Assembly: GCA_028700115.1 (NCBI GenBank)
Contig: JAQVTI010000011.1
Location: 1-32,000, forward strand
Direction of reading: 5' to 3'
Source: Candidatus Iainarchaeum sp.
GTDB lineage: Archaea; Iainarchaeota; Iainarchaeia; Iainarchaeales; CSSED10-239
Length of the DNA stretch: 32,000 nt
A model generated the notes under the pieces. The model was not told the DNA's origin. It ran no database searches and was given only the letters and a program-made list of their open reading frames with translations. Of the stretch, positions 1,849 to 24,848 are shown piece after piece (position 1 is the first letter of the stretch; each line of letters starts with the position of its first letter). A program made the position numbers and the translations under genes.

Positions 1849-4317
1849 ATGATAAAAATTGATTTAAATAATACTAATAAGCAAGAACTTTTAAAAGTTT
1901 TAGAAAAACAAATATCTTCTCCTTCAAGATATATTATATCCCCAATAGATATTTCTATTTTAAAAAAACATAGAATTGATGTTAAAACATTTGCAAAAAA
2001 ATTAAAAGAAGTAAAAGCAAATTATACTGTTTTAAAAGGTCTTGGTTTTAAAGCAAAAACATTAAAATCAGCAGGATTTATTTTAAATGATTTAAAACAA
2101 GTAGGATTTGATGCAACTAAATTAAGAGAGCTTGATTTTAATGCACAAGAATTATATACTGCAGGATATTTGGCAAAAGATTTAAGACAAGCGGGGTATA
2201 CTGCAAGAAGACTTAAAAAAGTTGGGGTTAATTTAAAAGATTTAAAACAAGCAGGATATTTAGCTAAAGAAATTAAAAATGCAGGATATTCTGCAAAGCA
2301 AATTTTAAGTGTAGGATTTACTATTAAAGATTTAAAAAAATCTGGTTTTACTGCTTCTCAATTAAAAAAGATAGGTCTTTCTGCAAAAGAATTATATAAT
2401 GGAACATATTCTTTAATAGAACTTAGAAAAGCAAAATATTCTATTATAAAATTAAAAGAAGCAGGATTTACAGATGCAGAACTTGGGATTGTAAAAAAAG
2501 TAAAAAAAGAAAAAACTGAAAAAAAAGTAAAAAAAGTAAAAAAAGAAAAAACTGAAAAAAAAGTAAAAAAAGTAAAAAAAGAAAAAACTGAAAAAAAAGT
2601 AAAAAAAGTAAAAAAAGAAAAAAAAGAAATTATTGTTAAAACAGATTCTAAAAATAAAAAATTATTTATAATTGAAATAAATAAAGAAAATTTAAAAAAA
2701 TATAAACCAATAGAATTAATTAAAGGAAAAGTTAATGCAGAATCTTTAAAAAAGAAAAACTTTTCTGCATCTGATTTAAAAAAATTAGATTTTTCTGCAA
2801 AAGATATTTATTTTTTAGGATATCTTGTATCTGATCTTAAAAAAGCTAATTTTTCTTTGAAAGATTTTAAAGAAGCAGGAGTTTCTATTAAAGAATTAAA
2901 AGAAATTGGATATCTTCCAATTGATTTAGTAAAATTATATGATACAAATAGTATTTTATATGGAGAATTTGACGCAAAAGATTTAAAAAATGCAAAATTT
3001 AATTCAAAAAAATTAAAAGAATATGCATATACTGCAAAACAATTACATGATGCAGGATATAATTTAAAAGATCTTTTAAAGGCAAATTATAAATTTAAAG
3101 ATATTCTTGCTTTAGGATATACAATTAAAGATTTAAGGAAGCATTATACTTTAAAAAAATTATGTAATCTTGGATATTGTTTACAAGATTTTAAAGAAAT
3201 ATTTACAATAAAAGAATTAATTGATGCAAATTTTACATTACAAGAATTAATTAATGCAGAATTTGATTTAAAAGAGCTTATTAATAATTTTAAAATTAAA
3301 GAATTTTATTTAATTAATTTTTCTGCAATTAAACTTTTTGAAAATGGTGTTTCTTTAGAAGAATTAAAAGAAGCAGGATACAATATAAAAGAATTAATTG
3401 CATTAGAACCTATACAAGAACCTTTAGAAGAAAAACAAAGTTATTCTTTAGAAGAATTAAAATATATGAAATATTCTATAAGTGAACTTTTAGAAATGGG
3501 GTATACTGTTTTAGATTTAAAAAATTCAGGATATTCTGCAAAAGAATTAAAAGTAGAAGGAGTTACTTGTAGAGAATTAATTGAAGTAGGATTTGATATA
3601 AGAGAACTTCATTTTTTAGGATGTACTTTAAAATATTTTATAGAATATGGATTAAATTTAATAGATTTAAGAAATTCTGGATTTAATGCTTTAGAATTAC
3701 ATTTAGAAGGATATTCTTTATATGATCTTAGAATGGCTGGGTTTTCTGCAAAAGAACTTCTTCACATAGGATATACTGCAAAACAATACCATTCTGTAGG
3801 ATATACTGCAAAAGAACTTTATGAAATTGGATTTAGTATTTCTAGTTTAAGATTTGCAGGATATAAAGCAAAAGAATTAACAGGAATTGGAATTTCTATA
3901 AATGATTTTTATTTAGCAGGATATTTAGCTAAAGAAATGGCACAAGCAGGATATAAACCAATAGACCTTAAAGGAAATTATTCTGCAAAAGAGTTAAAAC
4001 AAGCAGGATTTGATGTTGCATCTATGAAAAAAGCAGGATTTTCTGCAAAAGAGTTATATGATGTTGGGTTTTCTGCAAGACAACTTCATTATGGTGGATT
4101 TTCTGCAAAAGAACTTTATGAAGTTGGAGTAGGTATAAGAATGTTAAAAGTTATACATTATGCTGCAAAAGAATTAAAAGAAATTGGATTTACTGCCTTA
4201 CAATTAAAAAAAATTGGATATAACCTAGAACAATTAAAAGAAGCAGGATATTCTTTTACTGAACTTAAAGATGCAGGTTTTTCTTCAGAAAAGATTAACA
4301 GACTTCCTAATAAATAG
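1849..4317 (+). CDS. 822-aa decapeptide-repeat protein (consensus L-K-x-A-G-[FY]-S-A-K-[DE]), possibly a pentapeptide-like beta-helix; no signal peptide
   Basis: SD GAGGT lies 8 nt upstream of the ATG. Residues 62-211 form 15 repeats of exactly 10 aa with no indel. Residues 300-815 hold about 50 more. The two blocks are separated by a Lys-rich linker. Confidence 0.9.
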   Translation: MIKIDLNNTNKQELLKVLEKQISSPSRYIISPIDISILKKHRIDVKTFAKKLKEVKANYTVLKGLGFKAKTLKSAGFILNDLKQVGFDATKLRELDFNAQELYTAGYLAKDLRQAGYTARRLKKVGVNLKDLKQAGYLAKEIKNAGYSAKQILSVGFTIKDLKKSGFTASQLKKIGLSAKELYNGTYSLIELRKAKYSIIKLKEAGFTDAELGIVKKVKKEKTEKKVKKVKKEKTEKKVKKVKKEKTEKKVKKVKKEKKEIIVKTDSKNKKLFIIEINKENLKKYKPIELIKGKVNAESLKKKNFSASDLKKLDFSAKDIYFLGYLVSDLKKANFSLKDFKEAGVSIKELKEIGYLPIDLVKLYDTNSILYGEFDAKDLKNAKFNSKKLKEYAYTAKQLHDAGYNLKDLLKANYKFKDILALGYTIKDLRKHYTLKKLCNLGYCLQDFKEIFTIKELIDANFTLQELINAEFDLKELINNFKIKEFYLINFSAIKLFENGVSLEELKEAGYNIKELIALEPIQEPLEEKQSYSLEELKYMKYSISELLEMGYTVLDLKNSGYSAKELKVEGVTCRELIEVGFDIRELHFLGCTLKYFIEYGLNLIDLRNSGFNALELHLEGYSLYDLRMAGFSAKELLHIGYTAKQYHSVGYTAKELYEIGFSISSLRFAGYKAKELTGIGISINDFYLAGYLAKEMAQAGYKPIDLKGNYSAKELKQAGFDVASMKKAGFSAKELYDVGFSARQLHYGGFSAKELYEVGVGIRMLKVIHYAAKELKEIGFTALQLKKIGYNLEQLKEAGYSFTELKDAGFSSEKINRLPNK
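2491..2625 (+). repeat. perfect 36-bp tandem repeat (3 full copies plus 1 diverged partial) inside the repeat-protein gene
   Basis: The unit gtaaaaaaagtaaaaaaagaaaaaactgaaaaaaaa occurs at 2491, 2527 and 2563, with a partial copy from 2599. It encodes VKKVKKEKTEKK three times. Confidence 0.95.
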
Positions 4318-7046: not shown

Positions 7047-7628
7047 ATGATTATTAAACAAATTTCTAAAAAAGAAATTAAAAATGCAGACTTATTTCAA
7101 CAGGCTATATTAAATCCAAATAAATGTAAAAGATTTAGACCTTGGTCTGTAGTTTATAAAAATTTTTTAAGAAATCCTTCTTTATTTATTGGTGCATATG
7201 ATAAAAATAAAATAATAGGAATTGTTTTTGGGTATATTAAAAAAAATAAAGTTTTATTAGGAGAAATGGCTATTTCTAATGATTATCAAAGAAAAGGTAT
7301 TGGTAGAAAACTTATTTTTGAATTTGAGAAGAATGTAAAAAAATTAAATAAAAAGTATATTGAATTAGGGGCTTTTGGATCTGCTCAAAATTTTTATTTA
7401 AATTTAGGTTATACTCCTATATTATTTGTTCAAATTTATAAAAATAAAGTTAAAAAAAATTATAATAAGTTAAATTATAATGTATTAAAAGAAACTAATT
7501 ATATTGATGCTAAGAGGTTATTTATTAAAATTGATAAATTAGATGATAAACTAAAACAAAAAGCAGAAAAAGATTTTAATGCTTATAATGTAATCTATTT
7601 ATTTAGAAAAAATTTTGATTTTGGATAA
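7047..7628 (+). CDS. GNAT-family N-acetyltransferase
   Basis: 193-aa ORF carrying the acetyl-CoA-binding motif A, QRKGIGRKLI (Q/RxxGxG/A). Confidence 0.8.
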   Translation: MIIKQISKKEIKNADLFQQAILNPNKCKRFRPWSVVYKNFLRNPSLFIGAYDKNKIIGIVFGYIKKNKVLLGEMAISNDYQRKGIGRKLIFEFEKNVKKLNKKYIELGAFGSAQNFYLNLGYTPILFVQIYKNKVKKNYNKLNYNVLKETNYIDAKRLFIKIDKLDDKLKQKAEKDFNAYNVIYLFRKNFDFG

Positions 7629-7828
7629 ATTCTAATTATATCTTCTATAATTTTTATAATTATTTTATTTTTTTCAATTTTATATAAATTTTTATTATAT
7701 CTTATTTTAGTTATTTTATTATATATTTTTTTACAATCTTTATTTTTATAATCTAAAATAATGTTTTTTTTAGTAAATATAAAGTATATTTTATTTAAAT
7801 CTTCTCTTAATATCATTTTGAAATACAT
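7595..7828 (-). CDS. hypothetical 77-aa protein, possibly the third gene of the radical SAM cassette
   Basis: Its ATG at 7828 sits in TGATATG, 1 nt after the second TGA that would end the read-through form of the SPASM gene. The sequence is low-complexity K/I/N-rich and overlaps the GNAT 3' end by 34 nt. The support is weak. Confidence 0.3.
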   Translation of the reverse strand: MYFKMILREDLNKIYFIFTKKNIILDYKNKDCKKIYNKITKIRYNKNLYKIEKNKIIIKIIEDIIRIYPKSKFFLNK

Positions 7829-7829
7829 A

Positions 7830-7922
7830 TCAATCTTTTTTTAAACAATAATCTATATTATCTAATATATTATCTTTATTTAATATATCTAATTGTATTG
7901 GACATCTTGCGCATTTTTTTCA
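7830..7922 (-). other. in-frame TGA (7920-7922) plus a 29-codon continuation that completes the SPASM cysteine motif
   Basis: The minus-strand frame reads ..IKGCPDCKL-TGA-KKCARCPIQLDILNKDNILDNIDYCLKKD-TGA. Across the stop the spacing is Cx2Cx5Cx2C-x19-C, against the canonical SPASM Cx2Cx5Cx3C-gap-C. Confidence 0.7.
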
Positions 7923-8876
7923 TAATTTACAATCTGGACAACCTTTTATTTGTTGAATTCTCCAATTTTTAAATTGTATTGAATTCCATATTTTATTTAT
8001 ATTATTCAAGTTATTTTTAATTTTGTAAGAATAATTTTTAGCAAATCTTGTATAAGGTAATAAAGGACAAGGATATGCTATTAAATTGGTAGAAATATGA
8101 TAATAATGAATTCCAGCACCGCATTTAAAATAATAATCTTTTTTATCTAATGTTTTAAAATCAGATAAATCTAGTTCTATGTTGTTTATAATGCATTCCT
8201 TATTTAATTTTTTAATAAATTTTTTATCTTTAAAAAGTTTAATAATTTCATTAGAATTTATATTTTTATTATTATTTTTTCCTCTTCCTTTAGATAATAA
8301 TGGGCCTATAATCCATTTTTTTACATTTAATTTATTTAAAAATTTAGGAAATTCTAAAATTTCTTTATAATTTTTGGAATGAATTAAAGTTCCTACAATC
8401 GTATATATTTCATCTTTTTTTAGTTGATTTAATGTTTTTAAAGTATTATTGTATATTTTTTTATTTTTTTTAATTGGATCTCTTATATATAAATGAGATT
8501 GAGGATTAGTTCCATCTAAAGATATTTTAAATGCTAATAACATTTTTGATTTTTTAATTAAATTATATTTTTTTAAAGAGAATAATCCATTTGAAGTTAA
8601 ATAATAAGGTAATTCTATATGATCTAAATATTTAATTAAATTAATAAATTTAGAATATTTTGTAGGTTCTCCACCAGATATATTGACATATAATATATTT
8701 GTTTTTTTATAATAAGCTAATATTTTTTTTAAAATATTAAATGGAATTTCTTTTTTTATAATTCCATATGATCCATAACAATGAATACATTTTAAATTAC
8801 AATCAGAAGTTATACTTATATGAACATGTAATGGTGCTTTTTTTGCAAACAATTTATCTTGGTATTTTTTATCCAT
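7920..8876 (-). CDS. radical SAM/SPASM-domain peptide-maturase-like enzyme (as annotated, truncated within the SPASM motif)
   Basis: It has the CNLKCIHC (Cx3Cx2C) cluster motif at residues 26-33, a GGEPT SAM-binding motif, and the SPASM first half CGAGIHYYHISTNLIAYPC followed by GCPDC. It has no SD of its own and starts 5 nt after the small ORF's stop. Confidence 0.9.
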   Translation of the reverse strand: MDKKYQDKLFAKKAPLHVHISITSDCNLKCIHCYGSYGIIKKEIPFNILKKILAYYKKTNILYVNISGGEPTKYSKFINLIKYLDHIELPYYLTSNGLFSLKKYNLIKKSKMLLAFKISLDGTNPQSHLYIRDPIKKNKKIYNNTLKTLNQLKKDEIYTIVGTLIHSKNYKEILEFPKFLNKLNVKKWIIGPLLSKGRGKNNNKNINSNEIIKLFKDKKFIKKLNKECIINNIELDLSDFKTLDKKDYYFKCGAGIHYYHISTNLIAYPCPLLPYTRFAKNYSYKIKNNLNNINKIWNSIQFKNWRIQQIKGCPDCKL

Positions 8877-8881
8877 TTTAA

Positions 8882-9007
8882 TTAAAATTGATTATGTGCA
8901 CAAGGTACTGTATCTGCTCTTTTTAATATATTTAATTTTATATTTTTTTTATTTATTTCTATTTTTTTTGATTCAATATTTGTTGCAATATTTGCAGTTG
9001 ACATCAT
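8882..9007 (-). CDS. 41-aa small ORF (absent from the ORF track): candidate RiPP precursor peptide MMSTANIATNIESKKIEINKKNIKLNILKRADTVPCAHNQF
   Basis: GAGGTGA SD (9012-9018) lies 4 nt upstream of the ATG at 9007. TAA at 8882-8884 lies 5 nt before the radical SAM start (8876). The peptide has a Lys-rich leader-like N-terminal part and a C-terminal ADTVPCAHNQF holding the only Cys. Confidence 0.6.
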   Translation of the reverse strand: MMSTANIATNIESKKIEINKKNIKLNILKRADTVPCAHNQF

Positions 9008-9011
9008 ATTA

Positions 9012-9018
9012 TCACCTC
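9012..9018 (-). promoter_or_regulatory. Shine-Dalgarno site (GAGGTGA) for the 41-aa ORF
   Basis: Plus-strand tcacctc. This is the same SD type seen before ATGs at 4421, 11253, 27825, 14176 and 29672. Confidence 0.6.
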
Positions 9019-9047
9019 AAATTATATATTAATTGATCTACATAATG

Positions 9048-9055
9048 TTTATAAA
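9048..9055 (-). promoter_or_regulatory. TATA-box-like element (TTTATAAA, preceded by AAAAGA) upstream of the small ORF
   Basis: It lies 40 nt upstream of the ATG, which suits an archaeal promoter with a short SD-containing leader. Such strings are common in this AT-rich DNA. Confidence 0.25.
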
Positions 9056-9074: not shown

Positions 9075-10832
9075 TTATCTAGCACCTGCACCTCCACCAC
9101 CCATACCTCCACCAAATCCTCCTGCTGAACCACTACTACCTGAACCTGATATAGATCCATTAGATAGTGATGTGTAGGTTATACTTGTTGTATATGTTGC
9201 TAAAAACATCATGTTTGTGGTGTTACTTGACACATTTAGGTTGTGTGCCTTGATTATTTTGTTAACTTTCTTTGCACTTCCAAAAGCAGTTGCATAAACT
9301 ATATATTTTTCCCATAAAATTACATGTCTTGGAGGATATTTTTTAATTTGAGAAAAATCTGTTATATATCTATTAAAATTCATCCATTTTAGATTAAGAA
9401 CTCTGTTTTTCTTTGTAAATCTATTACTTAAAAAAGTACTTCTATCTTTGTATACTAATTTTTGAAAAGTTGTAAATATTTTTAGATAGATGCTAATTAT
9501 AAAAATATAAATCATAGGAATTGTCATGTATGCTATTTCAGGAGCTATTAAGTTTGTTTTACTAAAAATTAATGAAATAAATATTATATATATTGCAATA
9601 TAGCCAAAAAATAATAATGAAAAATAAATATTTCCTTTTTTCTCAAATAATTCCTGTTCTGTTTTCCAGTTTTTATAATATTCAAAAATTTCTTTTTGAA
9701 CTTTTTTAAATTCTAAATCCATTACTAGATTAAATTTATTTTTTGTAAGGTTATATCTGTTGTTAATCATTTTTTTAGTTATGTAATTGTATAGTGACTT
9801 ATAAGCACTGTTTAGAATATCTATTTTTTTATTAGTTTTAATTAAAATTAAATCATCATTTTTATCTTTTTCAAAATTTAAATATTTTTGATTAACTAAA
9901 TCCATTATAATTGATCCAAACCAATATTTTGTAAATCTACCATTTGCAAAATAATTTGCTTGTATAGGATCGTGTTTAGAAGGTAAATCTCTTTCATATT
10001 CTCCAAAGTAATTTACTTCTTTTTTAGAATATTCTTTTCCAAAAAATCTCCAAATTAAATAAAAGCCAATAAACCCTATTAATGTGTATATTAATAAATA
10101 TATTTTTTTATGTTCTAGAACAAATAGACCTATGTTTAGTTTTTTTTTAAGTTTATTTTCAATTTTTAAAACATCTTTAGATGTATATTCTTTTTTATAA
10201 TTACTTTTTTGTGTAAAATATGTATTTGGAATAAGCATATTTATTTCAATATACTCATTTGATTTTACATTTTTAGAAATTGAAAGTATATTTTTACTTT
10301 CTTCTATTTTATAATTATCTTTATTAAAAACATGCATGAAATATGTTGTGTTGTTTATGTCTTCTGGAAGGATAATTTGTATATTTGTTTTTGTAGATTT
10401 ATTTGTTTTTTCTCCATATATCTTATAAAAGAATTGATGAGAATCATTAATATCTAAAATAGCATTTTCAATTGTATATTCAAAATAAGCAGTTATTTGT
10501 TCATTACTAAAATTTCCTTTTAGAATAAGTTCTTTTTCTCCAGAAATGGATTCATTTTTGTTTTTAAAAATAAACTCTGCATTCTTATCTTTTTCAATAT
10601 ACCCATTATATTCAGAAATTATTATATCATCTGGTTTTTGTATATATAGCTCTGTAAAACTGCCATTTAAGTAATAAGTTATAGCTTCATTTACAATTAT
10701 TTGTGTGTTTTCTTGTATATTATAAGTTATATTATAATTTTCTATTGAATAATATTTTGCAGAAACTTGTGGAAGAATTAAAGCTAAAGTAAATATTATT
10801 GTAATTATTAAAAATATACTTTTTTTATTCAT
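9075..10832 (-). CDS. DUF2207-like membrane protein (signal peptide, extracellular domain, TM cluster, Gly-rich C-terminal tail)
   Basis: The start is preferred at MNKKSIFLIITIIFTLALILPQVSA (10832) because it gives a canonical signal peptide. The tail is ..GSGSSGSAGGFGGGMGGGGAGAR. The family assignment is from memory of this architecture. Confidence 0.6.
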   Translation of the reverse strand: MNKKSIFLIITIIFTLALILPQVSAKYYSIENYNITYNIQENTQIIVNEAITYYLNGSFTELYIQKPDDIIISEYNGYIEKDKNAEFIFKNKNESISGEKELILKGNFSNEQITAYFEYTIENAILDINDSHQFFYKIYGEKTNKSTKTNIQIILPEDINNTTYFMHVFNKDNYKIEESKNILSISKNVKSNEYIEINMLIPNTYFTQKSNYKKEYTSKDVLKIENKLKKKLNIGLFVLEHKKIYLLIYTLIGFIGFYLIWRFFGKEYSKKEVNYFGEYERDLPSKHDPIQANYFANGRFTKYWFGSIIMDLVNQKYLNFEKDKNDDLILIKTNKKIDILNSAYKSLYNYITKKMINNRYNLTKNKFNLVMDLEFKKVQKEIFEYYKNWKTEQELFEKKGNIYFSLLFFGYIAIYIIFISLIFSKTNLIAPEIAYMTIPMIYIFIISIYLKIFTTFQKLVYKDRSTFLSNRFTKKNRVLNLKWMNFNRYITDFSQIKKYPPRHVILWEKYIVYATAFGSAKKVNKIIKAHNLNVSSNTTNMMFLATYTTSITYTSLSNGSISGSGSSGSAGGFGGGMGGGGAGAR

Positions 10833-10938
10833 AAATATCTTACTTTTATTATATAATATATGGCATATCGATTCATTTATAAACATTTCTTTGCTTGTAT
10901 ATTTATACAAGTTATAATTTGTTAAGAGGTATTTTTAG

Positions 10939-14304: not shown

Positions 14305-17300
14305 CTATTTTTTAAAATAAGATTCTTTTTTTTGTATAATATAAAAAGCACCAATAATTATAAATATATATAAAATTAACATCAAATTAGATTGTGGGCT
14401 TAAAGGTATATTAAAACCACTTGATTCACTTCCTGAATTTCCCCCTATATTTATATTCATAGGGTTTTGAGAAGTTGTACCTACAACTTTTCCATCTTCT
14501 CCTACTTGAAACATCATTCCGTCTTTAAAATCTGGATTAAATGGAATTAAATGTCCATTTTCTGTATACCAATTACCTGTGCTTGGATCATACCAAAAAG
14601 AACCATTTTTTCCTTGAGCAGAAAGTAAAGTTTCAAGTTCATCATTATATTGTAATCTTGGAACACCATCTTCTGCACTAAATTCAAAATTATGCTCTTT
14701 TCCATCTGCAGTTTTTATTATCATTCCATCTGGTGTTTCAATAATTTCATCAATTGCCTGATCAGTAATTATTTGTCCGGTTTCTTTATCAATTATTTTC
14801 ATCCTTTTTTCACATTCAGGAGGATCTCCTGTATAAAAAATAAATGTCTTTGTAGCTGTGTCGAAAATCTGGAAAGGACCAACATGTTCTAGTGCATCAT
14901 TCATTTCATCAGCTTTATTTTGAGCATCTGCACTATCTTTTTTACCTTTTACATCAAAATCTAATGCAAATTCTTCACAACCAGTTACCTCATTGTTATA
15001 ATTTACAACTTTTGTATCTAAATCTTCAATTTCAGATTGATGCATTGTATAAGTTTGTTCAACCCATAAAATATAACTATTTGTTTCTCCATTATATATC
15101 ATTTGTCCTCTTTCAAATTGAATAGCTATGTTTTGACCAACTCTTACATCTTGGTTATCAATTGGATACATTTTTGTAAATCTTTCTCCACCATAAACAG
15201 TAACTTTTGCAGCATTTCCTTTTGCTGATCTTCTAGGAACTCCTTCTGCTACAATCTCTATATTATTTTCAGATGTTTTTGGCATTATATCATATTGTGT
15301 AGTTGGGTTTGTGATATTTGTTGTTGTTAAAATTTTTGCAGAACCAAGATAATCTGTTAAAGAATTTCCTTGCATTGTAAGTCCTGTTTGTGATTCATAG
15401 TTTAGTTTAAAACAATCTAAAAATCCAACGTTTTCAATAGTTATATTTCCATAAGCATCCATTGTAAACAAAGGAACATTTGTGTCTGGAACTGGTATAT
15501 AACTTAGACTATGAGGAATTACTTTTGCAGGAATTCCTAAGTTAGTTGCAGTAAGTCTTACCCAGTCTTTGTGTTCTGAATCAATTATATTTTTAATAGT
15601 TCCATCTTCTGTTACAATTTCTATTTTTCCTTCATCTTTATCAATAACTAAAGTTTCATTTGTAGATGTATCTGTTAGATGTTCTACACCTTTGTCATTA
15701 TATGCACTTGCTCTACAAGTTGATTTTTCTCCAAGTTCAAAAAAATAAAGCATTCCTTTAACAGAAGCTGAAGTGTTTCCTATAGTTTCAAATCTAGATT
15801 GAACAATTGGGTTGTCTTTTATTTTTGTTTCTGCAAAATTTTCAACTTCTTTTGCAGCTTCACTTAAATTTTCTTTTAAAGTAGTTCCATCTGCCATGTT
15901 TGAAATATTTTTTTGAATTGCAGAAGCTCCGTTTGAAATTGCATCTCCTATTTTATTTTTAGGATCTTTTTCTATTCTTTCTTCTTCATTTTTAGAAACA
16001 AAAACATGTGTATAATAACCTTCTTCATCATCTACACAGTCTTGAACTTGTGGTGTGATTAATGTTTGAGGAATTAAATCTCCTAGAATAACTCCAAGAA
16101 TCATTCTGTGGCTTGGAGCAGAAATTGCATAATAAGCTAAATTACTTGTGATTGCAGAAACCATTCCTGCTCTGTAACTTTTTCCTGTCCATTTAGTTGT
16201 CCAACCAATAGGAACACCAATTAATTCAAGTTCATCTATTCTTTGGGAACATGTATCTCCATTATTTTTTGCATCAGTTAAAACTACTGTTTTATCATCA
16301 GTTTCTCCTGAGATTGATCCACCATAATCTGTATGATGAGAAAATGTAATTAAAGTTTTTCCTTCATCTTCTAGATTTTCTTCAGTTGTGTTTTCTAGTA
16401 AGTATGTAGGTACTGTAATTCCACCTGGAATACTATAAATTATTTGCATATCTTTAATAGGTTCTTGAGAAGAAACTTCTTCTATAGAAATATCTGTTTC
16501 TTCTAAATTTTCTTTTTGTGTTTCTAAGATCTTTTCTTTTAGAGCTGATTTTTCATAAGTTTGTTTTTCTAAAAGAGAAGAGTTTCCAAGTTTCACATAA
16601 CAATTATCATTACATCCGTAGTTTTCTGCATCTGTAAATAAAGCAACTTCATCAACTGTGCTTCTTCTAATATGTCCTTCTGTAATTTGTTTTATCCAAT
16701 CATCTACTGAATTTGTGAATTTAGAATCTACACTTTCAATTCCAAGTTTAGTCAAAGAAACCAAATAAAATAACATACTATTAAAATATTTTGAAAATAA
16801 ATCACCTTGATCAGAACCATCATTTACAAAGTAATCAATATATGCATCTTTGTAAATATCTCCATCTTCTCCGTGATTAATTAAAACTGATGTATATGTT
16901 TCTGGGATTTGATATGCACTATATTTACTTAGAGAATCTCCTATAAAAGGAAGAGATGCACCTGCTGTTTTCCATTCCCAATATGCCCAGTTTAGAGCAT
17001 ACGCATTTAGAGAATTTCCTAAAAGACTCATTGCTTGGTTTGTATGTTTCCCATTAACTGGAGCTTTCATTTGTTGGTTTATCCAGTTTATTCCTTTTCC
17101 AGAAACCCAGCCTTTATTGTTCATTACATCCATCATAGATGTATTTACTATACTTGCATCTTTAACCATTTTAGTTCCATCAGCAACATATGAATATGCA
17201 AGTTCAATTGGATCATATCCAAAATCTTTTGCATCTAATGGAGTTTCTTTTACTGGATACCATTTAAAATTTGCAAAACTTGGATCAACATCATCTAATT

Positions 17301-19296
17301 TAAAATCAGTTGCTTTTACTTGTTTCATTATTCCAGATTTATCTTGATATCCTATATAAATATTAGGGTTATTTGTATATTTGGAAAGATCTATTCTTTC
17401 TAAATATTCTCCCTTTGCCATATTAATTTCTTCTCTATAAACTGGTATTTTTTGTATTTTTCTAGTAACTCCATCAGAAAAAGTTACATCTACAGTTTCA
17501 GTTTTAACTGTTTTTGCACCCATTTCATACATACCTTTATCAGAATTATATTTAATTTCAAAAGCCTTATTTCCTCCACCAATATCTGTTATCTGTGAAG
17601 AGCTTGCTCCTGTTGTTGGTTGAACTTTGTTTGTCATAACAAGTTCTGTTTTTCCTGTAGTTGGATCTTTATAAAGTGTTTTTCTAGAAGTAATTATTGG
17701 ATTTTCATTTAAAGGTTTATCCCATTTAACAGCACTTTCTGTTAAATCATCAATTCTATTTGTTAAGTTTCTAACTTCTGTTGTTTGTTTCATTATAATA
17801 TCATAATCTGCACTTGAAAGATTTTTATAAATATCTCCTGCTTTAGAGTTTGGGTCTTCAATAATTTCTACTAATTTTTTTACAGCAGTATCATAATCTT
17901 TATTTTTTATTAAAGACTCTTGTATTGCTTGAGTCATTTTTAAATTATCTTGATATTTTTGTGCACTTTCAAATAAAACTCTTCTTTGTTGTTTTGTAAG
18001 TTTATCAAATTTTCCACCTTTTGAAAATTCTTTTGCAATTGTGTCTATATTTTTCTTTGAACTTAAAGCATTTGTATATGCTTTATATTCATCATATATA
18101 CCATATTGATCAACAACTTGTCTTATTTCTTTTTGAGTTGTTTTTAAATAACTTGTATAATTATCAATATTTTTTGAAGCATTTTTAAACTCAATTGATC
18201 TAGTTAAAGCCTTTAGAGGGTTGTCTCCTTCTGAAAGCATATTGTCAATAAATCCACCTTTTTTTGCATTTATCTTTTTAGAAATATCAAAACCTAATCT
18301 ATTTTTAGAAAAATTTCCAATATCCCCAAAAATCTTAGTTGCACCTTTCCATAAGAAAGGAGATGCTGAAGAAACAACTAAGTCTGCAGAGAAATATTGA
18401 TTAAACATTTTATCAAATAAAGAATAAACATTAATATAACAATTTTCACCTTGACAAGTAGTTTCCATACTTGCATTAAATGTTTGTGTTTTTATACTAT
18501 TTTCAATTGCATTTTCTAAAAGAACTTGAGATTTTTTCATTTCAAACTCAGTTGCATTTTCATCAAATTGAATACTTTTAATATATTCTAATTGTTCATA
18601 TGACATTTCAGAAAATATACCCATATCTTCACTAATTTCAAAATCTGCTTCTGGGTTTATTATATCTCCTGCTTCTTCTTTAATCTTATTAATACCTATC
18701 ATATCAAGCATATCTTTTCCAACAGATACAAATTCATCTTTAAAACCATTATTACCATTTTCTCTAAAAAGACCAACTTCTTCTAAATAACAAGGTTCAT
18801 TTTCATCTCCACTACATCTTCCAACTCTTAGAGTGTTTTCTAAATTTATACCATATGAAAAAGGGCCATAACATGCTTGACCTAAAAGTGCAGGCACTTC
18901 TAGAGGGTTAATTTCTTGATTTGGCATTTCTTGTTGCAGCACAACATCATTTGCCTTTGTGTCTTTATTTGTAAGTAATAAATCATTTTCTTCTAAAGTA
19001 TCTCTGTTTGTGTTTTCTTTTTGATCAGAACCAACTAAGTCTACTTTAAATCCAGAAACTAAAAGTTCATCCCATAATCTTTCTACACTTTCAGAATCTA
19101 GTTCTTGAGTAAAACACCCAGATCCAAAATCATCAATATTATTTATTTCTTCTAGATTAATAGAACAAGTTGAGTATAAAGTTTTATTTTCTTCTAATCT
19201 TGTTATATCTACATTAAATGCAAAAACTGAGTTTATAAACATTAAAAGAAAGAAAAAACTTATTAAATTAAAATATATTTTATTTTTATCAAGCAT
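14305..19296 (-). CDS. 1663-aa secreted giant surface protein with an N-terminal signal peptide and a C-terminal TM anchor; no recognisable domain
   Basis: The signal peptide is IYFNLISFFFLLMFINSVFA. The C-terminus is ..GGNSGSESSGFNIPLSPQSNLMLILYIFIIIGAFYIIQKKESYFKK. The sequence is non-repetitive, with many cysteines that often occur in close pairs. Confidence 0.9.
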   Translation of the reverse strand: MLDKNKIYFNLISFFFLLMFINSVFAFNVDITRLEENKTLYSTCSINLEEINNIDDFGSGCFTQELDSESVERLWDELLVSGFKVDLVGSDQKENTNRDTLEENDLLLTNKDTKANDVVLQQEMPNQEINPLEVPALLGQACYGPFSYGINLENTLRVGRCSGDENEPCYLEEVGLFRENGNNGFKDEFVSVGKDMLDMIGINKIKEEAGDIINPEADFEISEDMGIFSEMSYEQLEYIKSIQFDENATEFEMKKSQVLLENAIENSIKTQTFNASMETTCQGENCYINVYSLFDKMFNQYFSADLVVSSASPFLWKGATKIFGDIGNFSKNRLGFDISKKINAKKGGFIDNMLSEGDNPLKALTRSIEFKNASKNIDNYTSYLKTTQKEIRQVVDQYGIYDEYKAYTNALSSKKNIDTIAKEFSKGGKFDKLTKQQRRVLFESAQKYQDNLKMTQAIQESLIKNKDYDTAVKKLVEIIEDPNSKAGDIYKNLSSADYDIIMKQTTEVRNLTNRIDDLTESAVKWDKPLNENPIITSRKTLYKDPTTGKTELVMTNKVQPTTGASSSQITDIGGGNKAFEIKYNSDKGMYEMGAKTVKTETVDVTFSDGVTRKIQKIPVYREEINMAKGEYLERIDLSKYTNNPNIYIGYQDKSGIMKQVKATDFKLDDVDPSFANFKWYPVKETPLDAKDFGYDPIELAYSYVADGTKMVKDASIVNTSMMDVMNNKGWVSGKGINWINQQMKAPVNGKHTNQAMSLLGNSLNAYALNWAYWEWKTAGASLPFIGDSLSKYSAYQIPETYTSVLINHGEDGDIYKDAYIDYFVNDGSDQGDLFSKYFNSMLFYLVSLTKLGIESVDSKFTNSVDDWIKQITEGHIRRSTVDEVALFTDAENYGCNDNCYVKLGNSSLLEKQTYEKSALKEKILETQKENLEETDISIEEVSSQEPIKDMQIIYSIPGGITVPTYLLENTTEENLEDEGKTLITFSHHTDYGGSISGETDDKTVVLTDAKNNGDTCSQRIDELELIGVPIGWTTKWTGKSYRAGMVSAITSNLAYYAISAPSHRMILGVILGDLIPQTLITPQVQDCVDDEEGYYTHVFVSKNEEERIEKDPKNKIGDAISNGASAIQKNISNMADGTTLKENLSEAAKEVENFAETKIKDNPIVQSRFETIGNTSASVKGMLYFFELGEKSTCRASAYNDKGVEHLTDTSTNETLVIDKDEGKIEIVTEDGTIKNIIDSEHKDWVRLTATNLGIPAKVIPHSLSYIPVPDTNVPLFTMDAYGNITIENVGFLDCFKLNYESQTGLTMQGNSLTDYLGSAKILTTTNITNPTTQYDIMPKTSENNIEIVAEGVPRRSAKGNAAKVTVYGGERFTKMYPIDNQDVRVGQNIAIQFERGQMIYNGETNSYILWVEQTYTMHQSEIEDLDTKVVNYNNEVTGCEEFALDFDVKGKKDSADAQNKADEMNDALEHVGPFQIFDTATKTFIFYTGDPPECEKRMKIIDKETGQIITDQAIDEIIETPDGMIIKTADGKEHNFEFSAEDGVPRLQYNDELETLLSAQGKNGSFWYDPSTGNWYTENGHLIPFNPDFKDGMMFQVGEDGKVVGTTSQNPMNINIGGNSGSESSGFNIPLSPQSNLMLILYIFIIIGAFYIIQKKESYFKK

Positions 19297-19316
19297 ATTT
19301 ATTACCTATTTAATTT

Positions 19317-19808
19317 TCATACAAAAATTATAAACAATATCATAGCGATTAATTTTGGAAAAATTATATTTATTATAATTAATATTAGACAAGCAATTGA
19401 AGTTGAAAATAATAATGGTAAAAAATTAATTTCTTTTTTAGACTTATTAAACTTATCATAAAATAAACTTATAATAAATGCAAATACTAGTAAAATACCT
19501 GCAATTAATATATTTGTTATAATTAATCTAAACAAATGTAATATTATAAAAAACAAACCTTCAAAGAAAGTATATTGAAAATCAATTGAAATTGTTGGAA
19601 TAAAATAAATTCCTAGAATTATTACTAATGAAACTAAATAAATAGTTACAAACATAGAAATTAAAAAACTTTTTTTCTTATTTATTTTTTTAAATAAAAA
19701 TTTAAATAAGTATACAAAAAGAATTATTGGTAAAGAAATTAATACACTAACTCCATATAGTTTTATAAAAAACCAAATATAATTAAATATTGTAGAAAGT
19801 ATATTCAT
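19317..19808 (-). CDS. 163-aa polytopic membrane protein (about 5 TM), immediately upstream of the giant gene
   Basis: Almost entirely hydrophobic helices. A 20-nt gap separates it from the giant ORF on the same strand. Confidence 0.7.
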   Translation of the reverse strand: MNILSTIFNYIWFFIKLYGVSVLISLPIILFVYLFKFLFKKINKKKSFLISMFVTIYLVSLVIILGIYFIPTISIDFQYTFFEGLFFIILHLFRLIITNILIAGILLVFAFIISLFYDKFNKSKKEINFLPLLFSTSIACLILIIINIIFPKLIAMILFIIFV

Positions 19809-19948
19809 AGTTTATCTTTTTAATTTATATTTTCTTAAATTTAAAATATATATTTTGTGTAAAATATATTTATATATATAAATTGAAACATTTATAAGCA
19901 TTATTATCTAAATATATTTGTAATTTTTATTAAAATATATATATAGGT

Positions 19949-20701
19949 ATGGAATTTATGAATAAATCTGATATTATTAGAAGAGAGAGAAGACACTATA
20001 GAAGATATGTAAATGGAAATATAGTGTATGAACCAGCTCCTGTTGATGGGCATAAAGAAAGTACTTATGATAATAAGTTTAAAAATAATTATAAAATGAA
20101 AAAAGAAGAAGGAAGAATTACAAGTCTTGCTGAATTAGCTGATGAAAATATAAAAACAAAGTTTCCTAAAAAAGATCAAGTTATTGAAAAAACTTTACAT
20201 GAATTATCAGATATGATAAATCCTGATTCTTCAGAAATTGCAGATGCTTTATATAATCAATTTAAGAATACTGCATTAAATATTAAACAACAAGAAATAA
20301 AAAAAGCAATTGATAATAATAAACATTTTAGAGCAAGTAGTGATCAAAATAAAAATTTAGAAATAAAAGATATAAAAGCAGTTGTTGAAGATGTTTATGT
20401 TCAAGTTGAAAAAGAAGCAATCAAGAATAAGTCTATAGAAAAGGATAAAAGTGATGTAAAAGAAGCAATCACAAAAGAAATTTCTAAAGATAAAAATAAA
20501 TCTTTTAAAAAAGAAGAACCAAAAGAAGAAAAAACTTCTATAAGATCTAGAAAAAAATCTATAGAAAAAGAAGAAGTTAAAGAAATTAAACCTTCTAAGA
20601 AAAAAGAAAAAGTTTCTGGAAATGATCTTTTTGGTGATAATGATTTAGATTTAGATGATAATGATTTAGATTCTGATGATGATTTAGGACTTAAATTTTA
20701 A
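19949..20701 (+). CDS. 250-aa K/E-rich, probably disordered protein with a strongly acidic C-terminal tail
   Basis: It has an Arg-rich N-terminus (IIRRERRHYRRY), long KE-rich tracts and the tail ..GNDLFGDNDLDLDDNDLDSDDDLGLKF. Confidence 0.6.
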   Translation: MEFMNKSDIIRRERRHYRRYVNGNIVYEPAPVDGHKESTYDNKFKNNYKMKKEEGRITSLAELADENIKTKFPKKDQVIEKTLHELSDMINPDSSEIADALYNQFKNTALNIKQQEIKKAIDNNKHFRASSDQNKNLEIKDIKAVVEDVYVQVEKEAIKNKSIEKDKSDVKEAITKEISKDKNKSFKKEEPKEEKTSIRSRKKSIEKEEVKEIKPSKKKEKVSGNDLFGDNDLDLDDNDLDSDDDLGLKF

Positions 20702-20720
20702 TTTTATAAAAATTAAAAAA

Positions 20721-21506
20721 TTAATCATTATAAATTTTACAATTTAATTTTTCTAATTCTTTTTGAGCTATGCTTTTATTAGCTGGCCAAATTGCAAAAG
20801 TTGAAGTTATTTCTAATTCAGTTTCATCTCTACCTTCTTTTGCAGTAAAAGTTAAAGGAACAGAAGAAGCATGTATATCATTTGCTTTTGAAATAACTTC
20901 TCTTATATCATTATAATTTAAAGGATCGCATAAATAATATTTTGAAAGACCCATATTTATATCATTTAATTTATAGGTTTTATTAGAATCATTTTCTGAG
21001 TTTTCAAAATCAGTTATTTTTAACATAATATATTCAAATTTTTGATCATTTGTATTATATAAATAAAAAGTAAAATCATAACTAGGAAGAGGCATCATAA
21101 CTGATTTTATTGTGTGAAATAAATTATATTTTGCAATATCATCAGGATTTGACACATCTGGATTTGGAATATCTTCATCTATTGGATTAAACATATAATT
21201 TAAATCACCAGAACCTATATGTTTATCAGGATAAAAATCTGTTTTTACTGCTGTCATTAGATAATCAATTTCTTCACTTTCAAATATGTTTTTATTATAA
21301 TCTAAAGGAATTTCTGAATAAAATATAGTTTTTAAAGCAGAATTTGAATATTCTTTAAAATATAAATTATTTATTGCAAGATCTACTCTATCTCCATAGC
21401 TTGCTGAATATTTAAAAAGCATTACAGTTAGAACTATAATTATTGTTAAGAAAAATAAAGCATCTGTAATTGCAGCTTGTGCTTTTTGTCTTTTTAATTT
21501 ATTCAT
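20721..21506 (-). CDS. pilin-like protein with class III signal peptide (261 aa)
   Basis: The N-terminus is MNKLKRQKAQAAITDALFFLTIIIVLTVMLF. It is the last gene of the pilus-like operon. Confidence 0.75.
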   Translation of the reverse strand: MNKLKRQKAQAAITDALFFLTIIIVLTVMLFKYSASYGDRVDLAINNLYFKEYSNSALKTIFYSEIPLDYNKNIFESEEIDYLMTAVKTDFYPDKHIGSGDLNYMFNPIDEDIPNPDVSNPDDIAKYNLFHTIKSVMMPLPSYDFTFYLYNTNDQKFEYIMLKITDFENSENDSNKTYKLNDINMGLSKYYLCDPLNYNDIREVISKANDIHASSVPLTFTAKEGRDETELEITSTFAIWPANKSIAQKELEKLNCKIYND

Positions 21507-21529
21507 ATTTTTTCAAAATTTATTTTTAT

Positions 21530-22087
21530 TTATTCCCATACAGCAACATATAGCCTTACAGGAACTGCATGATATTCTATTTGTAAATTAATAGGGTAAA
21601 CATAAACTAAGACTTTATGTTTTTCATCTTGGGTTTTTACTTTTGTTTTAAATTTATCTAAATTTTTAGAAGTATTTGGACAGTAAAATATATTTTGTTC
21701 TGAATTTGGATCATATATATTTTCATCTAGAACAATTATTTGTGTATTATCTTCATCATTTGTTAATAGAAATTCTAAATCTACCTCATTGTAATTATCT
21801 AAATCTTGGGGTAGGTCTATTAAAAAGGCAGTCCAGTTTCTGTTTGTGTTTACTTTATTACATATGTTTGTAAAATGATTATAATCTATTATAACTGGTT
21901 CTGATCTTAAAGTCATAGAAATATCTATTGCATCTTGATGTAAATCAAAGTTTTGAGTTTCTGTTTTATAATTATTATATGTGCTTAAAAATACTGAAAA
22001 AAAAATTAATAGACCTATGAATATAGGTATTAGACTTGGAAGATCATCCCCTATTGCACCAATATAACCTTTTTGTTTTTTTTTCAT
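21530..22087 (-). CDS. pilin-like protein with class III signal peptide (about 185 aa)
   Basis: The start is preferred at MKKKQKGYIGAIGDDLPSLIPIFIGLLIFF (ATG 22087), which overlaps the upstream gene's end by 9 nt. Confidence 0.7.
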   Translation of the reverse strand: MKKKQKGYIGAIGDDLPSLIPIFIGLLIFFSVFLSTYNNYKTETQNFDLHQDAIDISMTLRSEPVIIDYNHFTNICNKVNTNRNWTAFLIDLPQDLDNYNEVDLEFLLTNDEDNTQIIVLDENIYDPNSEQNIFYCPNTSKNLDKFKTKVKTQDEKHKVLVYVYPINLQIEYHAVPVRLYVAVWE

Positions 22088-22094
22088 ATTTAAT

Positions 22095-22763
22095 CTAACC
22101 ATTATTAGGTTCATTATATTCATTTATACAAATATCTACAGACTTACAACTTACATCTTCAAACATAGAATCATCGCAAACTATCTTTTTACATGTAAGA
22201 ATACCATTTTGTTTTGCACAAGGCAATATATAATAATTGTCTTGTCCTTCTATTTTATTTTTGATTAGAATAAGAGTAGAATCATTACTTTTTACTCTTA
22301 ATGTATCATATATTCCATAATCTTGTTTAGAACTCCAATTACTACTATTATCATATGGATGCTCTGCATTATAAAAGGTAAAATCTCCATTAAAATCTAT
22401 ATCATATGCACCATATATTTTATCTTGTTTTTGATTTAAAATAGATATGACTAGTTTTTTATTATAATTATTTTCTGGATTTTCTTTTTCAAGTTCCATA
22501 ATATTTAGGACATATGCTTTGTTAAATGTAGTAGTTGAGCTTTGTCCACTTTTAATTCTTGTTGGGATATCTATATATTTGATAGAGCAATAACTCTCAC
22601 TATCTGTAATTAATTTAATATCTCTACCTATATTATAAGCTAATTCATAACTTTGTCTAGTTTGTAGATTTGAATTTACTGTATTCATAAAAAAAAGAAT
22701 AATTGCAGCAATTGCTGTTGCAAATAAAAGCATATTAAGTTTTGATAAAGCAAATTCAAACAT
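22095..22763 (-). CDS. pilin-like protein lacking a charged leader (222 aa, Cys-rich C-terminus)
   Basis: MFEFALSKLNMLLFATAIAAIILFF begins directly with the hydrophobic segment. Seven Cys are present, six of them in the last 40 residues. Confidence 0.65.
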   Translation of the reverse strand: MFEFALSKLNMLLFATAIAAIILFFMNTVNSNLQTRQSYELAYNIGRDIKLITDSESYCSIKYIDIPTRIKSGQSSTTTFNKAYVLNIMELEKENPENNYNKKLVISILNQKQDKIYGAYDIDFNGDFTFYNAEHPYDNSSNWSSKQDYGIYDTLRVKSNDSTLILIKNKIEGQDNYYILPCAKQNGILTCKKIVCDDSMFEDVSCKSVDICINEYNEPNNG

Positions 22764-22778
22764 TTTTTAATCACTAAT

Positions 22779-23393
22779 TTATTTTTTTCTTAAAAGACAA
22801 ATTTGTATATTACTTGAATTTGTATTTGTCTTTTTAAACATTCTATATTTTCCAGGAGGAAGACCTATTGGAGATCCATCAGATGAATCTTTTGGATTCC
22901 ATACTTGCCATAAATCTTCAGATATTTCATCTTCAGATAAGCATTCATCAGGAGTTGTTGCAAAATTTATAGTTGTTGGAAGATGTGTGCAGATTGGTTC
23001 AATTGGATATTTATAATCAAAAGTATCTTTATCTTCATAAGTATATTCTAATAATAAACAACTATCTCCCCCACCACAATAAGTTCCGCATTTTCCTTTA
23101 TCATCATATGCATTAAGTCTTACATATTCATATCTTTGATTAAAACACGCTTTTGTATCTAAAGATATATTTCTAATTACTAGATCTGAGCCTAAGACAA
23201 CATCTCTTAGAGAAGAATTAAAATTACTAAGTTCTTCTTTTTTATCTCCAAGGCATGTGCTTTGTTGTAAATTTTTAAGAGCATAAGTTCCTGCTAGAAT
23301 AACAAAACCCATAATTATGATTGCAACTAGAAGTTCAAAAGGAGCACCTATTTGTGCTTTTTGTTTATTATATTTTTTTTTAACAAATATCAT
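22779..23393 (-). CDS. Cys-rich pilin-like protein with class III signal peptide (204 aa)
   Basis: The N-terminus is MIFVKKKYNKQKAQIGAPFELLVAIIIMGFVIL. There are eight Cys, including GKCGTYCGGGDSC. Confidence 0.75.
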   Translation of the reverse strand: MIFVKKKYNKQKAQIGAPFELLVAIIIMGFVILAGTYALKNLQQSTCLGDKKEELSNFNSSLRDVVLGSDLVIRNISLDTKACFNQRYEYVRLNAYDDKGKCGTYCGGGDSCLLLEYTYEDKDTFDYKYPIEPICTHLPTTINFATTPDECLSEDEISEDLWQVWNPKDSSDGSPIGLPPGKYRMFKKTNTNSSNIQICLLRKK

Positions 23394-23429
23394 ATTATAA
23401 AGATAGTATAAAGTATTAAAAAAACTTTT

Positions 23430-23481
23430 GTTTTTATTTAGAAAAACAAGAAAAAGAAAATAGTTTAAAATAAACTATTTT
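23430..23481 (-). terminator. AT-rich hairpin plus T-rich tract after the mini-pilin gene
   Basis: aaatagttt (23458-23466) pairs with aaactattt (23472-23480). On the minus strand it is followed by TTTTCTTTTTCTTGTTTTTC. It lies in the 87-nt gap before the next pilin-like gene. Confidence 0.35.
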
Positions 23482-23678
23482 TATTCAGAAGTTACTGTTT
23501 GGTTTGGAAGATTTGCTTTTTGAGAAGACGCTTTTACTGATTTATTAAACATAGGCTTAACTACTGCAATTAGAATAATTGCAATAATTGCAACAATTAT
23601 TATCATAAATATAGAATTTGACTCACCTTGAGCTTTTTCTTCATTTATGAATTTAATAAATTCTTTTTTTAATCTCAT
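23481..23678 (-). CDS. 65-aa mini-pilin (class III signal peptide plus a short tail)
   Basis: MRLKKEFIKFINEEKAQGESNSIFMIIIVAIIAIILIAVVKPMF..; the predicted mature part is only about 49 aa. Confidence 0.7.
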   Translation of the reverse strand: MRLKKEFIKFINEEKAQGESNSIFMIIIVAIIAIILIAVVKPMFNKSVKASSQKANLPNQTVTSE

Positions 23679-23707
23679 ATCTTCTCAAAAACCATTTTTA
23701 ATTAAAT

Positions 23708-24238: not shown

Positions 24239-24245
24239 TTTTTTT

Positions 24246-24251
24246 CCTCCT
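24246..24251 (-). promoter_or_regulatory. Shine-Dalgarno site (AGGAGG) of the candidate major pilin
   Basis: Plus-strand cctcct at 24246-24251, 7 nt from the ATG at 24238. Confidence 0.6.
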
Positions 24252-24348
24252 AATAAAAAATTAAATAACTTTTTTTATTAAATATAATATATAACTAATA
24301 TTAAAGAAAATCAAAACTTATTTAAATATTTTTATTTTCTTCATTTTC

Positions 24349-24846: not shown

Positions 24847-24848
24847 AT

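Follow-up and report, generated by a model that had tools for sequence, protein, structure and literature searches.

A probable RiPP-type peptide maturation cassette in Iainarchaeota-like DPANN archaea, with an in-frame TGA in the maturase gene of Candidatus Iainarchaeum sp.

The question raised by this locus is whether a 41-codon open reading frame (ORF) on the minus strand of a 32,000-nucleotide stretch of Candidatus Iainarchaeum sp. DNA (contig JAQVTI010000011.1, hereafter the window, with a GC content of 22.7%) encodes the precursor of a peptide made by the ribosome and then modified post-translationally (RiPP), and whether the radical S-adenosylmethionine (SAM)/SPASM enzyme encoded directly downstream can still act on it. 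The peptide gene, the radical SAM/SPASM gene (hereafter the maturase gene), and an ORF of 77 amino acids (aa) (hereafter the partner) follow one another as a three-gene cassette of ~1.6 kb in total. Our analyses make it probable that this is a RiPP-type peptide maturation cassette, the window copy of which carries a recent nonsense mutation in the maturase gene; the cassette constitutes a previously undescribed small family in Iainarchaeota-like DPANN archaea. The initial annotation of this DNA had described the small minus-strand ORF, its GAGGTGA Shine-Dalgarno (SD) sequence, a stop codon 5 nt before the radical SAM start, and the lack of an SD sequence for the radical SAM gene, all of which are present in the sequence. 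It had also called the peptide unannotated, whereas GenBank already lists it as hypothetical protein PHN22_03455 of "Candidatus ainarchaeum sp."; the partner is listed as hypothetical protein PHN22_03445. The features of the locus are as follows.

9048..9055, minus strand: candidate archaeal TATA box TTTATAAA after an A-rich stretch, 40 nt 5' of the peptide ATG
9012..9018, minus strand: SD-like GAGGTGA, 4 nt 5' of the peptide ATG (ATG at 9007)
8882..9007, minus strand: peptide gene, 41 aa plus TAA, from the ORF list and orthologs
7920..8876, minus strand: encoded 5' part of the radical SAM/SPASM maturase gene (318 codons and the TGA)
8778..8801, minus strand: CX3CX2C motif of the maturase
7938..7940 and 7929..7931, minus strand: codons of SPASM Cys 313 and Cys 316
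7920..7922, minus strand: in-frame TGA, maturase codon 319, within the SPASM CX2CX5CX2C motif
7830..7919, minus strand: orphaned maturase 3' end, 29 codons (KKCARCPIQLDILNKDNILDNIDYCLKKD) with Cys 322, 325, and 343, followed by the TGA that is the natural stop (7830-7832)
7595..7828, minus strand: 77-aa partner ORF, ATG 1 nt past the natural maturase stop
7047..7628, plus strand: GNAT acetyltransferase gene, convergent, with a 34-nt overlap with the partner 3' end

The product of the peptide gene, MMSTANIATNIESKKIEINKKNIKLNILKRADTVPCAHNQF, consists of a conserved N-terminal segment (MSTANIATNIES), a variable Lys-rich middle, and C-A-H-N-Q-F at the exact C terminus. Many ORFs of 30-46 aa occur in the window, and a 41-codon ORF alone means little; this one stands beyond chance because it is conserved in relatives. 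Contigs with orthologous enzymes were fetched to compare the peptide loci, and a profile search of 5.8 billion proteins returned nine peptide clusters, which together with the variant at locus L016 make 10 distinct peptides. A peptide gene lies directly upstream of every complete radical SAM ortholog, with one distinct sequence per cassette. Eight of the 10 peptides are 41 aa long, one is 46 aa, and one was called at 50 aa from an upstream start and contains the same 41-aa core. The N terminus reads M-(I/M)-S-T-A-(A/N)-I-A-x-N-(T/I)-E-S, in place of which the 46-aa variant carries IRTAGIATKIDN; the middle is Lys-rich and variable throughout, and all variants end exactly in C-[A/G/S/D]-H-[N/P]-[Q/E]-[Y/F/H]. 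Invariant features are the Cys, the His at +2, and the position of the stop codon; nearly invariant is a terminal aromatic residue at +5, which is Tyr in 8 of the 10 peptides, Phe in the window alone, and His in one. The initial annotation had singled out a core with one Cys plus Asp and Thr; the Cys is indeed invariant, but Asp and Thr are not conserved. When six 41-codon genes were compared, 21, 18, and 35 of 41 sites varied at first, second, and third codon positions, respectively, and Nei-Gojobori ratios of non-synonymous to synonymous substitution (dN/dS) were 0.17-0.64 in all 14 unsaturated pairs. Homologous peptides with conserved ends occupy the same position, variation is greatest at third codon positions, and dN/dS stays below 1; on these comparative data, the 41-aa ORF is a genuine protein-coding gene. 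The search of related genomes that had been proposed for the pair shows the small ORF to be conserved at the protein level in every relative with a complete cassette; the non-coding substitution pattern that, according to the initial annotation, would refute its reading was thus not seen, and the arrangement expected of a RiPP cassette, a precursor gene conserved beside a modifying enzyme, is present here. The peptide has no curated family in NCBIfam at E-values up to 10, and the peptide strings were not found in a literature search.

The signals around the three genes would fit a single transcript headed by the peptide gene. The GGTGAT core of its SD sequence is kept at the same distance from the ATG in all orthologous loci (seven upstream contexts compared). 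Five nucleotides (ttaaa) separate the TAA of the peptide gene (8882-8884) from the maturase ATG at 8876, ahead of which no purine-rich SD sequence was found; the sole strong SD sequence of the operon is that of the peptide gene. Across all loci, the maturase starts 0-14 nt past the peptide stop, and the partner starts 1-4 nt past the maturase stop. In the window, the partner ORF adjoins the radical SAM gene only in the uninterrupted ancestral frame, and the possible coupling suggested for it in the initial annotation would concern the natural maturase stop, 1 nt away; the TGA as a stop leaves a gap of 91 nt. Boxes resembling the TATA candidate, TTTATAAA or TTTAAATA, lie 31-32 nt upstream in orthologs, and the TATA-box assignment at 9048..9055 is weak given the 23% GC genome. 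A scan for bacterial-type promoters and terminators gave matches no better than in shuffled sequence and no terminator.

The enzyme belongs to the radical SAM superfamily, as Pfam Radical_SAM (PF04055) matches it with 58.2 bits against a cut-off of 29.5 and C26-x3-C30-x2-C33 is invariant among orthologs. Its N terminus has no space for a fused RiPP recognition element (RRE), since the CX3CX2C motif already begins at residue 26. Reading through the in-frame TGA gives a product of 348 aa that can be aligned over its whole length with radical SAM families of the SPASM type and also with five orthologs of 340-345 aa (47-61% identity). SPASM assignment was judged by the seven-Cys pattern C-x9-15-G-x4-C, gap, CX2CX5CX3C, gap, C (two auxiliary 4Fe-4S clusters) and by a match to a domain model. 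Cys 252, 270, 313, 316, 322, 325, and 343 are conserved across the maturase family, as is Cys 228; the first spacing is C-x17-C (252 to 270), outside x9-15-G-x4, and the last is CX2C rather than CX3C. With Arg restored at the TGA, the C-terminal 123 aa score 29 bits with the SPASM model TIGR04085 (cut-off 27), the next-best matches being the peptide maturases CbpB, PapB, and nif11 radical SAM. The top NCBIfam matches of the enzyme are TIGR04133 (75.6 bits), NirJ2 (71), AhbD (65.4), MftC (65), and PapB (60), and all named families score far under their cut-offs; for example, equivalog scores against cut-offs are 60/340 for PapB, 50.7/850 for AlbA, 41.8/300 for SkfB, and 38.5/625 for StsB, and the SCIFF maturase model reaches 13.5 against 425 (C-terminal domain). 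An AlphaFold2 (AF2) model of the ortholog P0005, with a predicted local distance difference test (pLDDT) score of 85, has SkfB, SuiB, BlsE, CteB, and PqqE as its best structural matches by E-value and anSME as the match of highest template modeling (TM) score (0.70 over about 370 columns), and aligns over its full length to SuiB, CteB, and anSME. SkfB is also first in a PDB sequence search with the maturase. Genomic context and structural neighbors favor a peptide-modifying role for the enzyme, which sequence alone does not place.

The window copy of this enzyme is interrupted. At the break, the sequence reads GCPDCKL-TGA-KKCARCP, and the frame runs on for 29 codons to the TGA at 7830-7832. 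The interrupted position is Arg (AGA/CGA) in all seven intact orthologs checked, one base change away from TGA. The encoded 318-aa product stops after Cys 316 and is without Cys 322, 325, and 343, three of the seven SPASM Cys, which by analogy with the anSME structure we take to ligate both auxiliary clusters. The window matches, with 99.98% identity over 6161 nt, a contig of the "Candidatus ainarchaeum sp." metagenome-assembled genome GCA_028691725.1, which puts it in Iainarchaeota (DPANN). This second assembly has the same TGA; an assembly error is therefore unlikely, with the proviso that the two assemblies may share reads or population. The sole difference over these 6161 nt is itself in the maturase, a non-synonymous Asn to Tyr change at 8083-8085 (codon 264). 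From the comparison with orthologs, the TGA is most likely a recent AGA/CGA-to-TGA nonsense mutation. Because the nonsense codon removes three SPASM Cys, the window copy of the maturase is probably inactive, so that it would no longer modify its peptide. A precursor-type peptide coupled to a radical SAM/SPASM maturase had been correctly recognized in the initial annotation, which missed that the maturase gene is broken by the TGA.

Complete cassettes, made up of the peptide, the radical SAM/SPASM enzyme, and a partner of 76-86 aa, all come from AT-rich DPANN archaea, and the distant radical SAM homologs P0032 (Patescibacteria) and P0007 are without the peptide/partner arrangement. Two other lineages are disrupted independently of the window. 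In the lineage of L016, L024, and L025, an in-frame TAA has taken the place of TCA, the codon for the invariant Ser119 in the SLDG motif, with the rest of the gene, the peptide, and the partner intact (disrupted maturase at L016 2001-3035, L024 3979-5016, and L025 1211-2248); three assemblies, including one with a 977-kb contig, have the same cassette sequence throughout. The cassette most closely related to that of the window, L029/L030 (71% aa identity), no longer has the peptide gene or the first 136 maturase codons, that is the radical SAM cluster-binding N terminus; it retains maturase codons 137-348, which specify Arg at the position of the TGA, and also the partner and the GNAT gene (L029 3181-4661). 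HicAB genes and an IS200/IS605-type Y1 transposase lie near the L029/L030 remnant. A comparison of the window with L029 gives dN/dS values of 0.25 for the enzyme (0.18 for the tail past the TGA), 0.17 for the partner, and 0.36 for the neighboring GNAT gene; on these values, the lesions of the window and of L029 are young compared with the split between the two lineages. A 31-nt deletion at the maturase 5' end of L028 (about 300-340, compared with L027 1570-1610) removes NNALHIHISI and shifts the frame. This was not counted as a fourth inactivation, as it may be a k-mer artifact, 31 nt being presumably the k-mer size of Logan assemblies. Overall, the cassette behaves like a dispensable accessory trait.

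The partner gives an AF2 model with a pLDDT of 91.5 from an eight-sequence alignment, with strands at residues 3-8, 13-18, and 23-28 and helices at 32-44, 47-51, and 55-67, followed by a short helix at 70-73. This is the strand-strand-strand-helix-helix-helix order by which an RRE is strictly defined (PMC12710340). The only full-length Foldseek alignments of the model in the PDB are, although weak, to an RRE, that of the lasso-peptide protein TbiB1. Topology, size, and position together suggest that the partner may act as an RRE, a role predicted from these features and not from homology. An exhaustive hidden Markov model search of 1.84 billion cluster representatives returned only four clusters of the partner's own family; the extra match P0106 is a polyubiquitin and was rejected as spurious.

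How, then, would such a cassette work? A single transcript would carry all three genes. Because only the peptide gene has a strong SD sequence and the downstream genes start 0-14 and 1-4 nt past the preceding stops, maturase and partner are probably translated by coupling, the spacing being observed and the coupling deduced from it. The partner would act as a stand-alone leader-binding module on I-S-T-A-A-I-A-x-N-T-E-S, a role suggested by its fold topology, size, and position. It would thereby present the C-terminal hexapeptide C-x-H-[N/P]-[Q/E]-[Y/F/H] to the RRE-less radical SAM/SPASM enzyme, which would cleave SAM at the CX3CX2C cluster and abstract a hydrogen within the hexapeptide. As a tentative first guess, a small ring may be closed between the sulfur of the invariant Cys and a carbon in one of the residues downstream of it, as in the thioethers of sactipeptides and ranthipeptides, with the terminal aromatic residue at i+5 as the likeliest acceptor. 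CteB makes a Cys32-Thr37 link, whose spacing equals that proposed here from Cys to i+5. Alternatively, the enzyme might form a carbon-carbon crosslink with the His or the aromatic residue or catalyze an MftC-like oxidative decarboxylation of the terminal residue.

The division of labor in the cassette is of the type found in PqqA/D/E, MftA/B/C, and StsB/StsC. In the membership tests applied, the cassette qualified for none of the named families; what is new is the peptide and partner families, and their phyletic range is narrow. The initial annotation had seen the canonical layout of sactipeptide and ranthipeptide loci, a class membership that the maturase models, far under their cut-offs, do not establish. 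In common with sactipeptide (SkfB, AlbA, StsB+StsC) and ranthipeptide (PapB, CteB, SCIFF) systems, the peptides here have an invariant core Cys upstream of candidate acceptors, and the maturase has SkfB and CteB near the top of its structural and sequence matches. A minimal cassette that includes neither protease nor exporter is also typical of SCIFF systems. Some sactipeptide clusters, too, have a discrete RRE, e.g. StsC (PMC12710340). On the other hand, there is one core Cys here and not several, an N-terminal RRE fused to the enzyme is absent, the final Cys pair of the SPASM motif is spaced CX2C instead of CX3C, and all equivalog models score far under cut-off. anSME, which has the highest TM-score (0.70) of any solved structure, is also an RRE-less radical SAM/SPASM enzyme, comparable in length and with a Cys of a short motif as its target, but its C/S-x-P/A-x-R motif is absent (the peptides here carry C-x-H-N-Q), no sulfatase gene lies nearby, and the present cassette has a dedicated small peptide and a partner protein.

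Several observations weigh against reading the locus as a RiPP-type cassette. For the enzyme, the Pfam SPASM model PF13186 gives 18.9 bits, under its gathering score of 21.5, and by sequence the maturase is equally near to the non-peptide enzymes NirJ2 and AhbD and to peptide maturases. For the partner, two of the five AF2 models are near pLDDT 60; there is no Pfam, NCBIfam, or PDB sequence match and none to PF05402 at E-values up to 10; hhalign gives a probability of 0.07% with the PqqD domain of P0072; and Foldseek finds nothing in the PDB at E ≤ 0.001, the only full-length alignments, at ranks 2, 4, and 5, being to the lasso-peptide RRE TbiB1 and weak (E about 0.8, TM 0.43-0.46). For the PqqD-like RRE fold, for which the initial annotation had proposed a test, the AF2 model shows the topology; no significant sequence or fold homology to known RREs was found. 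In addition, no conserved protease or exporter adjoining the cassette was found in the flanks examined, and the variation of the terminal residue among Tyr, Phe, and His speaks against chemistry that requires a phenol. The thioether, like any other chemistry proposed above, is a guess, and low-level read-through of the TGA may occur.

These observations have to be set against other explanations of the same locus. The peptide might be the precursor of an intracellular redox cofactor, like pyrroloquinoline quinone (PQQ) or mycofactocin, and not a secreted or signaling RiPP; the radical SAM enzyme would then modify the extreme C terminus, e.g. by oxidative decarboxylation of the terminal Tyr and a crosslink, and housekeeping peptidases would free the small molecule. 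The architecture is indeed like that of PqqE with PqqD and of MftC with MftB, in that a radical SAM/SPASM enzyme without a fused RRE is accompanied by a small protein of β3-α3 topology; mycofactocin loci share with the cassette a short precursor with an aromatic end, modified at its extreme C terminus, and a separate RRE-sized protein of about 80-100 aa, and the PQQ core shares a small peptide, a discrete β3-α3 chaperone, and a radical SAM/SPASM enzyme, PqqE, that is a significant structural neighbor of the maturase. The conserved residues lie at the exact C terminus of the peptides, the last of them being scored as aromatic in all 10 and Tyr in 8, MftC is in the four best NCBIfam matches, and no exporter, protease, or immunity gene is conserved in the flanks examined. 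However, the MftC model (TIGR03962) scores 65 against a cut-off of 265 bits, PqqE is a weak sequence match (E 2.3e-5 over the radical SAM core), and the partner has no PF05402 match. The peptides end in C-x-H-N-Q-Y/F/H, without the G-V-Y end of MftA or the Glu-x3-Tyr motif of PqqA, and the gene order is peptide, radical SAM, partner as opposed to A-B-C in a DPANN archaeon as opposed to an actinobacterium. No homologs of mftD/E/F or of pqqB/C were found in any flank examined, and there is no pqqF gene either; the His-ending variant retains an intact maturase, and the cassette has repeatedly been lost or broken, which would be unusual for a core cofactor. On balance, a cofactor precursor seems unlikely. 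Even less likely is a role of the small ORF in regulation, as an upstream ORF, or as a structural subunit of small size, with an enzyme that, like AhbD or NirJ, acts on a tetrapyrrole or another non-peptide substrate and with no RiPP involved. NirJ2 (71 bits) and AhbD (65 bits) do align over the full length and score like any peptide maturase, and the partner is without demonstrable RRE homology. This explanation is at odds with the purifying selection on the peptide at the protein level at both ends, its invariant Cys/His motif and fixed stop, and the assignment of the operon's only strong SD sequence to the peptide; furthermore, the best structural neighbors (SkfB, SuiB, CteB, PqqE, and anSME) act on peptides or proteins, the C-terminal domain matches CbpB, PapB, and nif11 radical SAM after the generic SPASM model, and no heme or siroheme pathway genes were found in the window or flanks.

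The two further alternatives concern the reading frames themselves. The TGA at 7920-7922 could be decoded, by read-through, recoding, or selenocysteine insertion, so that the window maturase would be full-length and active. This would account for the 29 intact codons past the TGA with all three conserved Cys and low dN relative to the closest relative, for the recurrence of the stop in the second assembly, and for the existence of a second lineage whose gene is intact but for one in-frame stop. Yet the stop of that lineage is TAA, and TGA is a true stop elsewhere, since it ends three other window ORFs, each with a further in-frame stop within 1-4 codons, and is the natural stop of the maturase gene and of two orthologs. 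An alternative code in which TGA means Trp or Gly was therefore rejected, TGG serving for Trp throughout. Selenocysteine was rejected as well, because orthologs have Arg and not Cys or selenocysteine at this position, and the window has no match to any Rfam family, including the selenocysteine insertion sequence (SECIS). The closest relative has, moreover, lost the peptide gene and 136 enzyme codons, and decay is the simpler explanation, which makes a decoded TGA improbable. Finally, that the 41-codon ORF arose by chance in AT-rich intergenic DNA, as the many 30-46 codon ORFs of the window did, is refuted by the comparative data, namely 10 distinct homologous peptides at the same position (eight of 41 aa), with conserved ends, most variation at third positions, and dN/dS below 1 in all comparable pairs. 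A RiPP-type cassette with a mutated maturase gene in the window is the reading we retain.

Regarding the surroundings of the cassette, the convergent GNAT gene keeps its position in all loci of the 41-aa clade that reach that far (L001 5251-5820; L011 1562-2131; L024 5232-5801; L029 4029-4661) and is absent in two divergent clades, and its presence may reflect a functional link or plain synteny. In these two most divergent clades, a same-strand SAM-dependent methyltransferase gene follows the partner in the place of GNAT (Methyltransf_11/25 in L006, 1831-2580; FtsJ-like in L031, 856-1758), and such enzymes could be tailoring enzymes. In L005 (1-3598), and in that lineage only, the cassette is immediately preceded on its own strand by a DUF8164 gene and by genes for two ABC permeases of the MacB/FtsX type; these could be an exporter, in an arrangement that is not conserved. 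Directly upstream of the peptide gene in the window, in a position not kept in relatives, is a gene for a DUF2207-type membrane protein with a Gly/Ser-rich tail (9075-10910, minus strand), and a second DUF2207-type membrane protein is encoded at 25391-27631 (minus strand). Between them, at 14305-25379 (minus strand), a 1663-aa ORF is followed by seven same-strand ORFs of 163-261 aa, none of which has a Pfam match. An 822-aa protein encoded at 1849-4317 (plus strand) is made up nearly entirely of decapeptide/pentapeptide repeats (PF25296, E 4e-166, 11 stretches). At 29817-31013 (plus strand), a 398-aa homolog of F420-0:gamma-glutamyl ligase (CofE-like) is encoded; the match covers the whole 218-position profile, and the protein therefore carries large insertions. 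A CofE-like homolog is unexpected in a genome-reduced DPANN archaeon.

For annotation, the window maturase is best entered as a nonsense-mutated gene, and until there is more evidence, the locus should be left out of counts of functional biosynthetic clusters. With respect to novelty, the initial annotation knew of no RiPP of this form from a DPANN-like archaeon. Genome mining across archaea, including DPANN, has already counted predicted radical SAM RiPP clusters, but none has been characterized, and haloarchaeal lanthipeptides are the only experimentally validated archaeal RiPPs (PMC12144867). The cassette offers a compact expression target, with three genes, a 41-aa substrate, and a six-residue conserved core, and it adds a putative leader-binding protein that sequence-based RRE finders would miss. 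It is conceivable, if somewhat doubtful, that its intact members make a chemically new, very small modified peptide or peptide-derived cofactor from C-x-H-x-x-aromatic by means of a radical SAM/SPASM enzyme and a sequence-novel RRE-like chaperone. If true, this would be the first radical SAM-modified ribosomal peptide characterized from DPANN archaea, and the patchy spread and repeated recent inactivation of the cassette would reflect a costly, conditionally useful molecule, e.g. in interaction with a host or neighbor. The family could thereby reveal chemistry retained by genome-reduced archaea.

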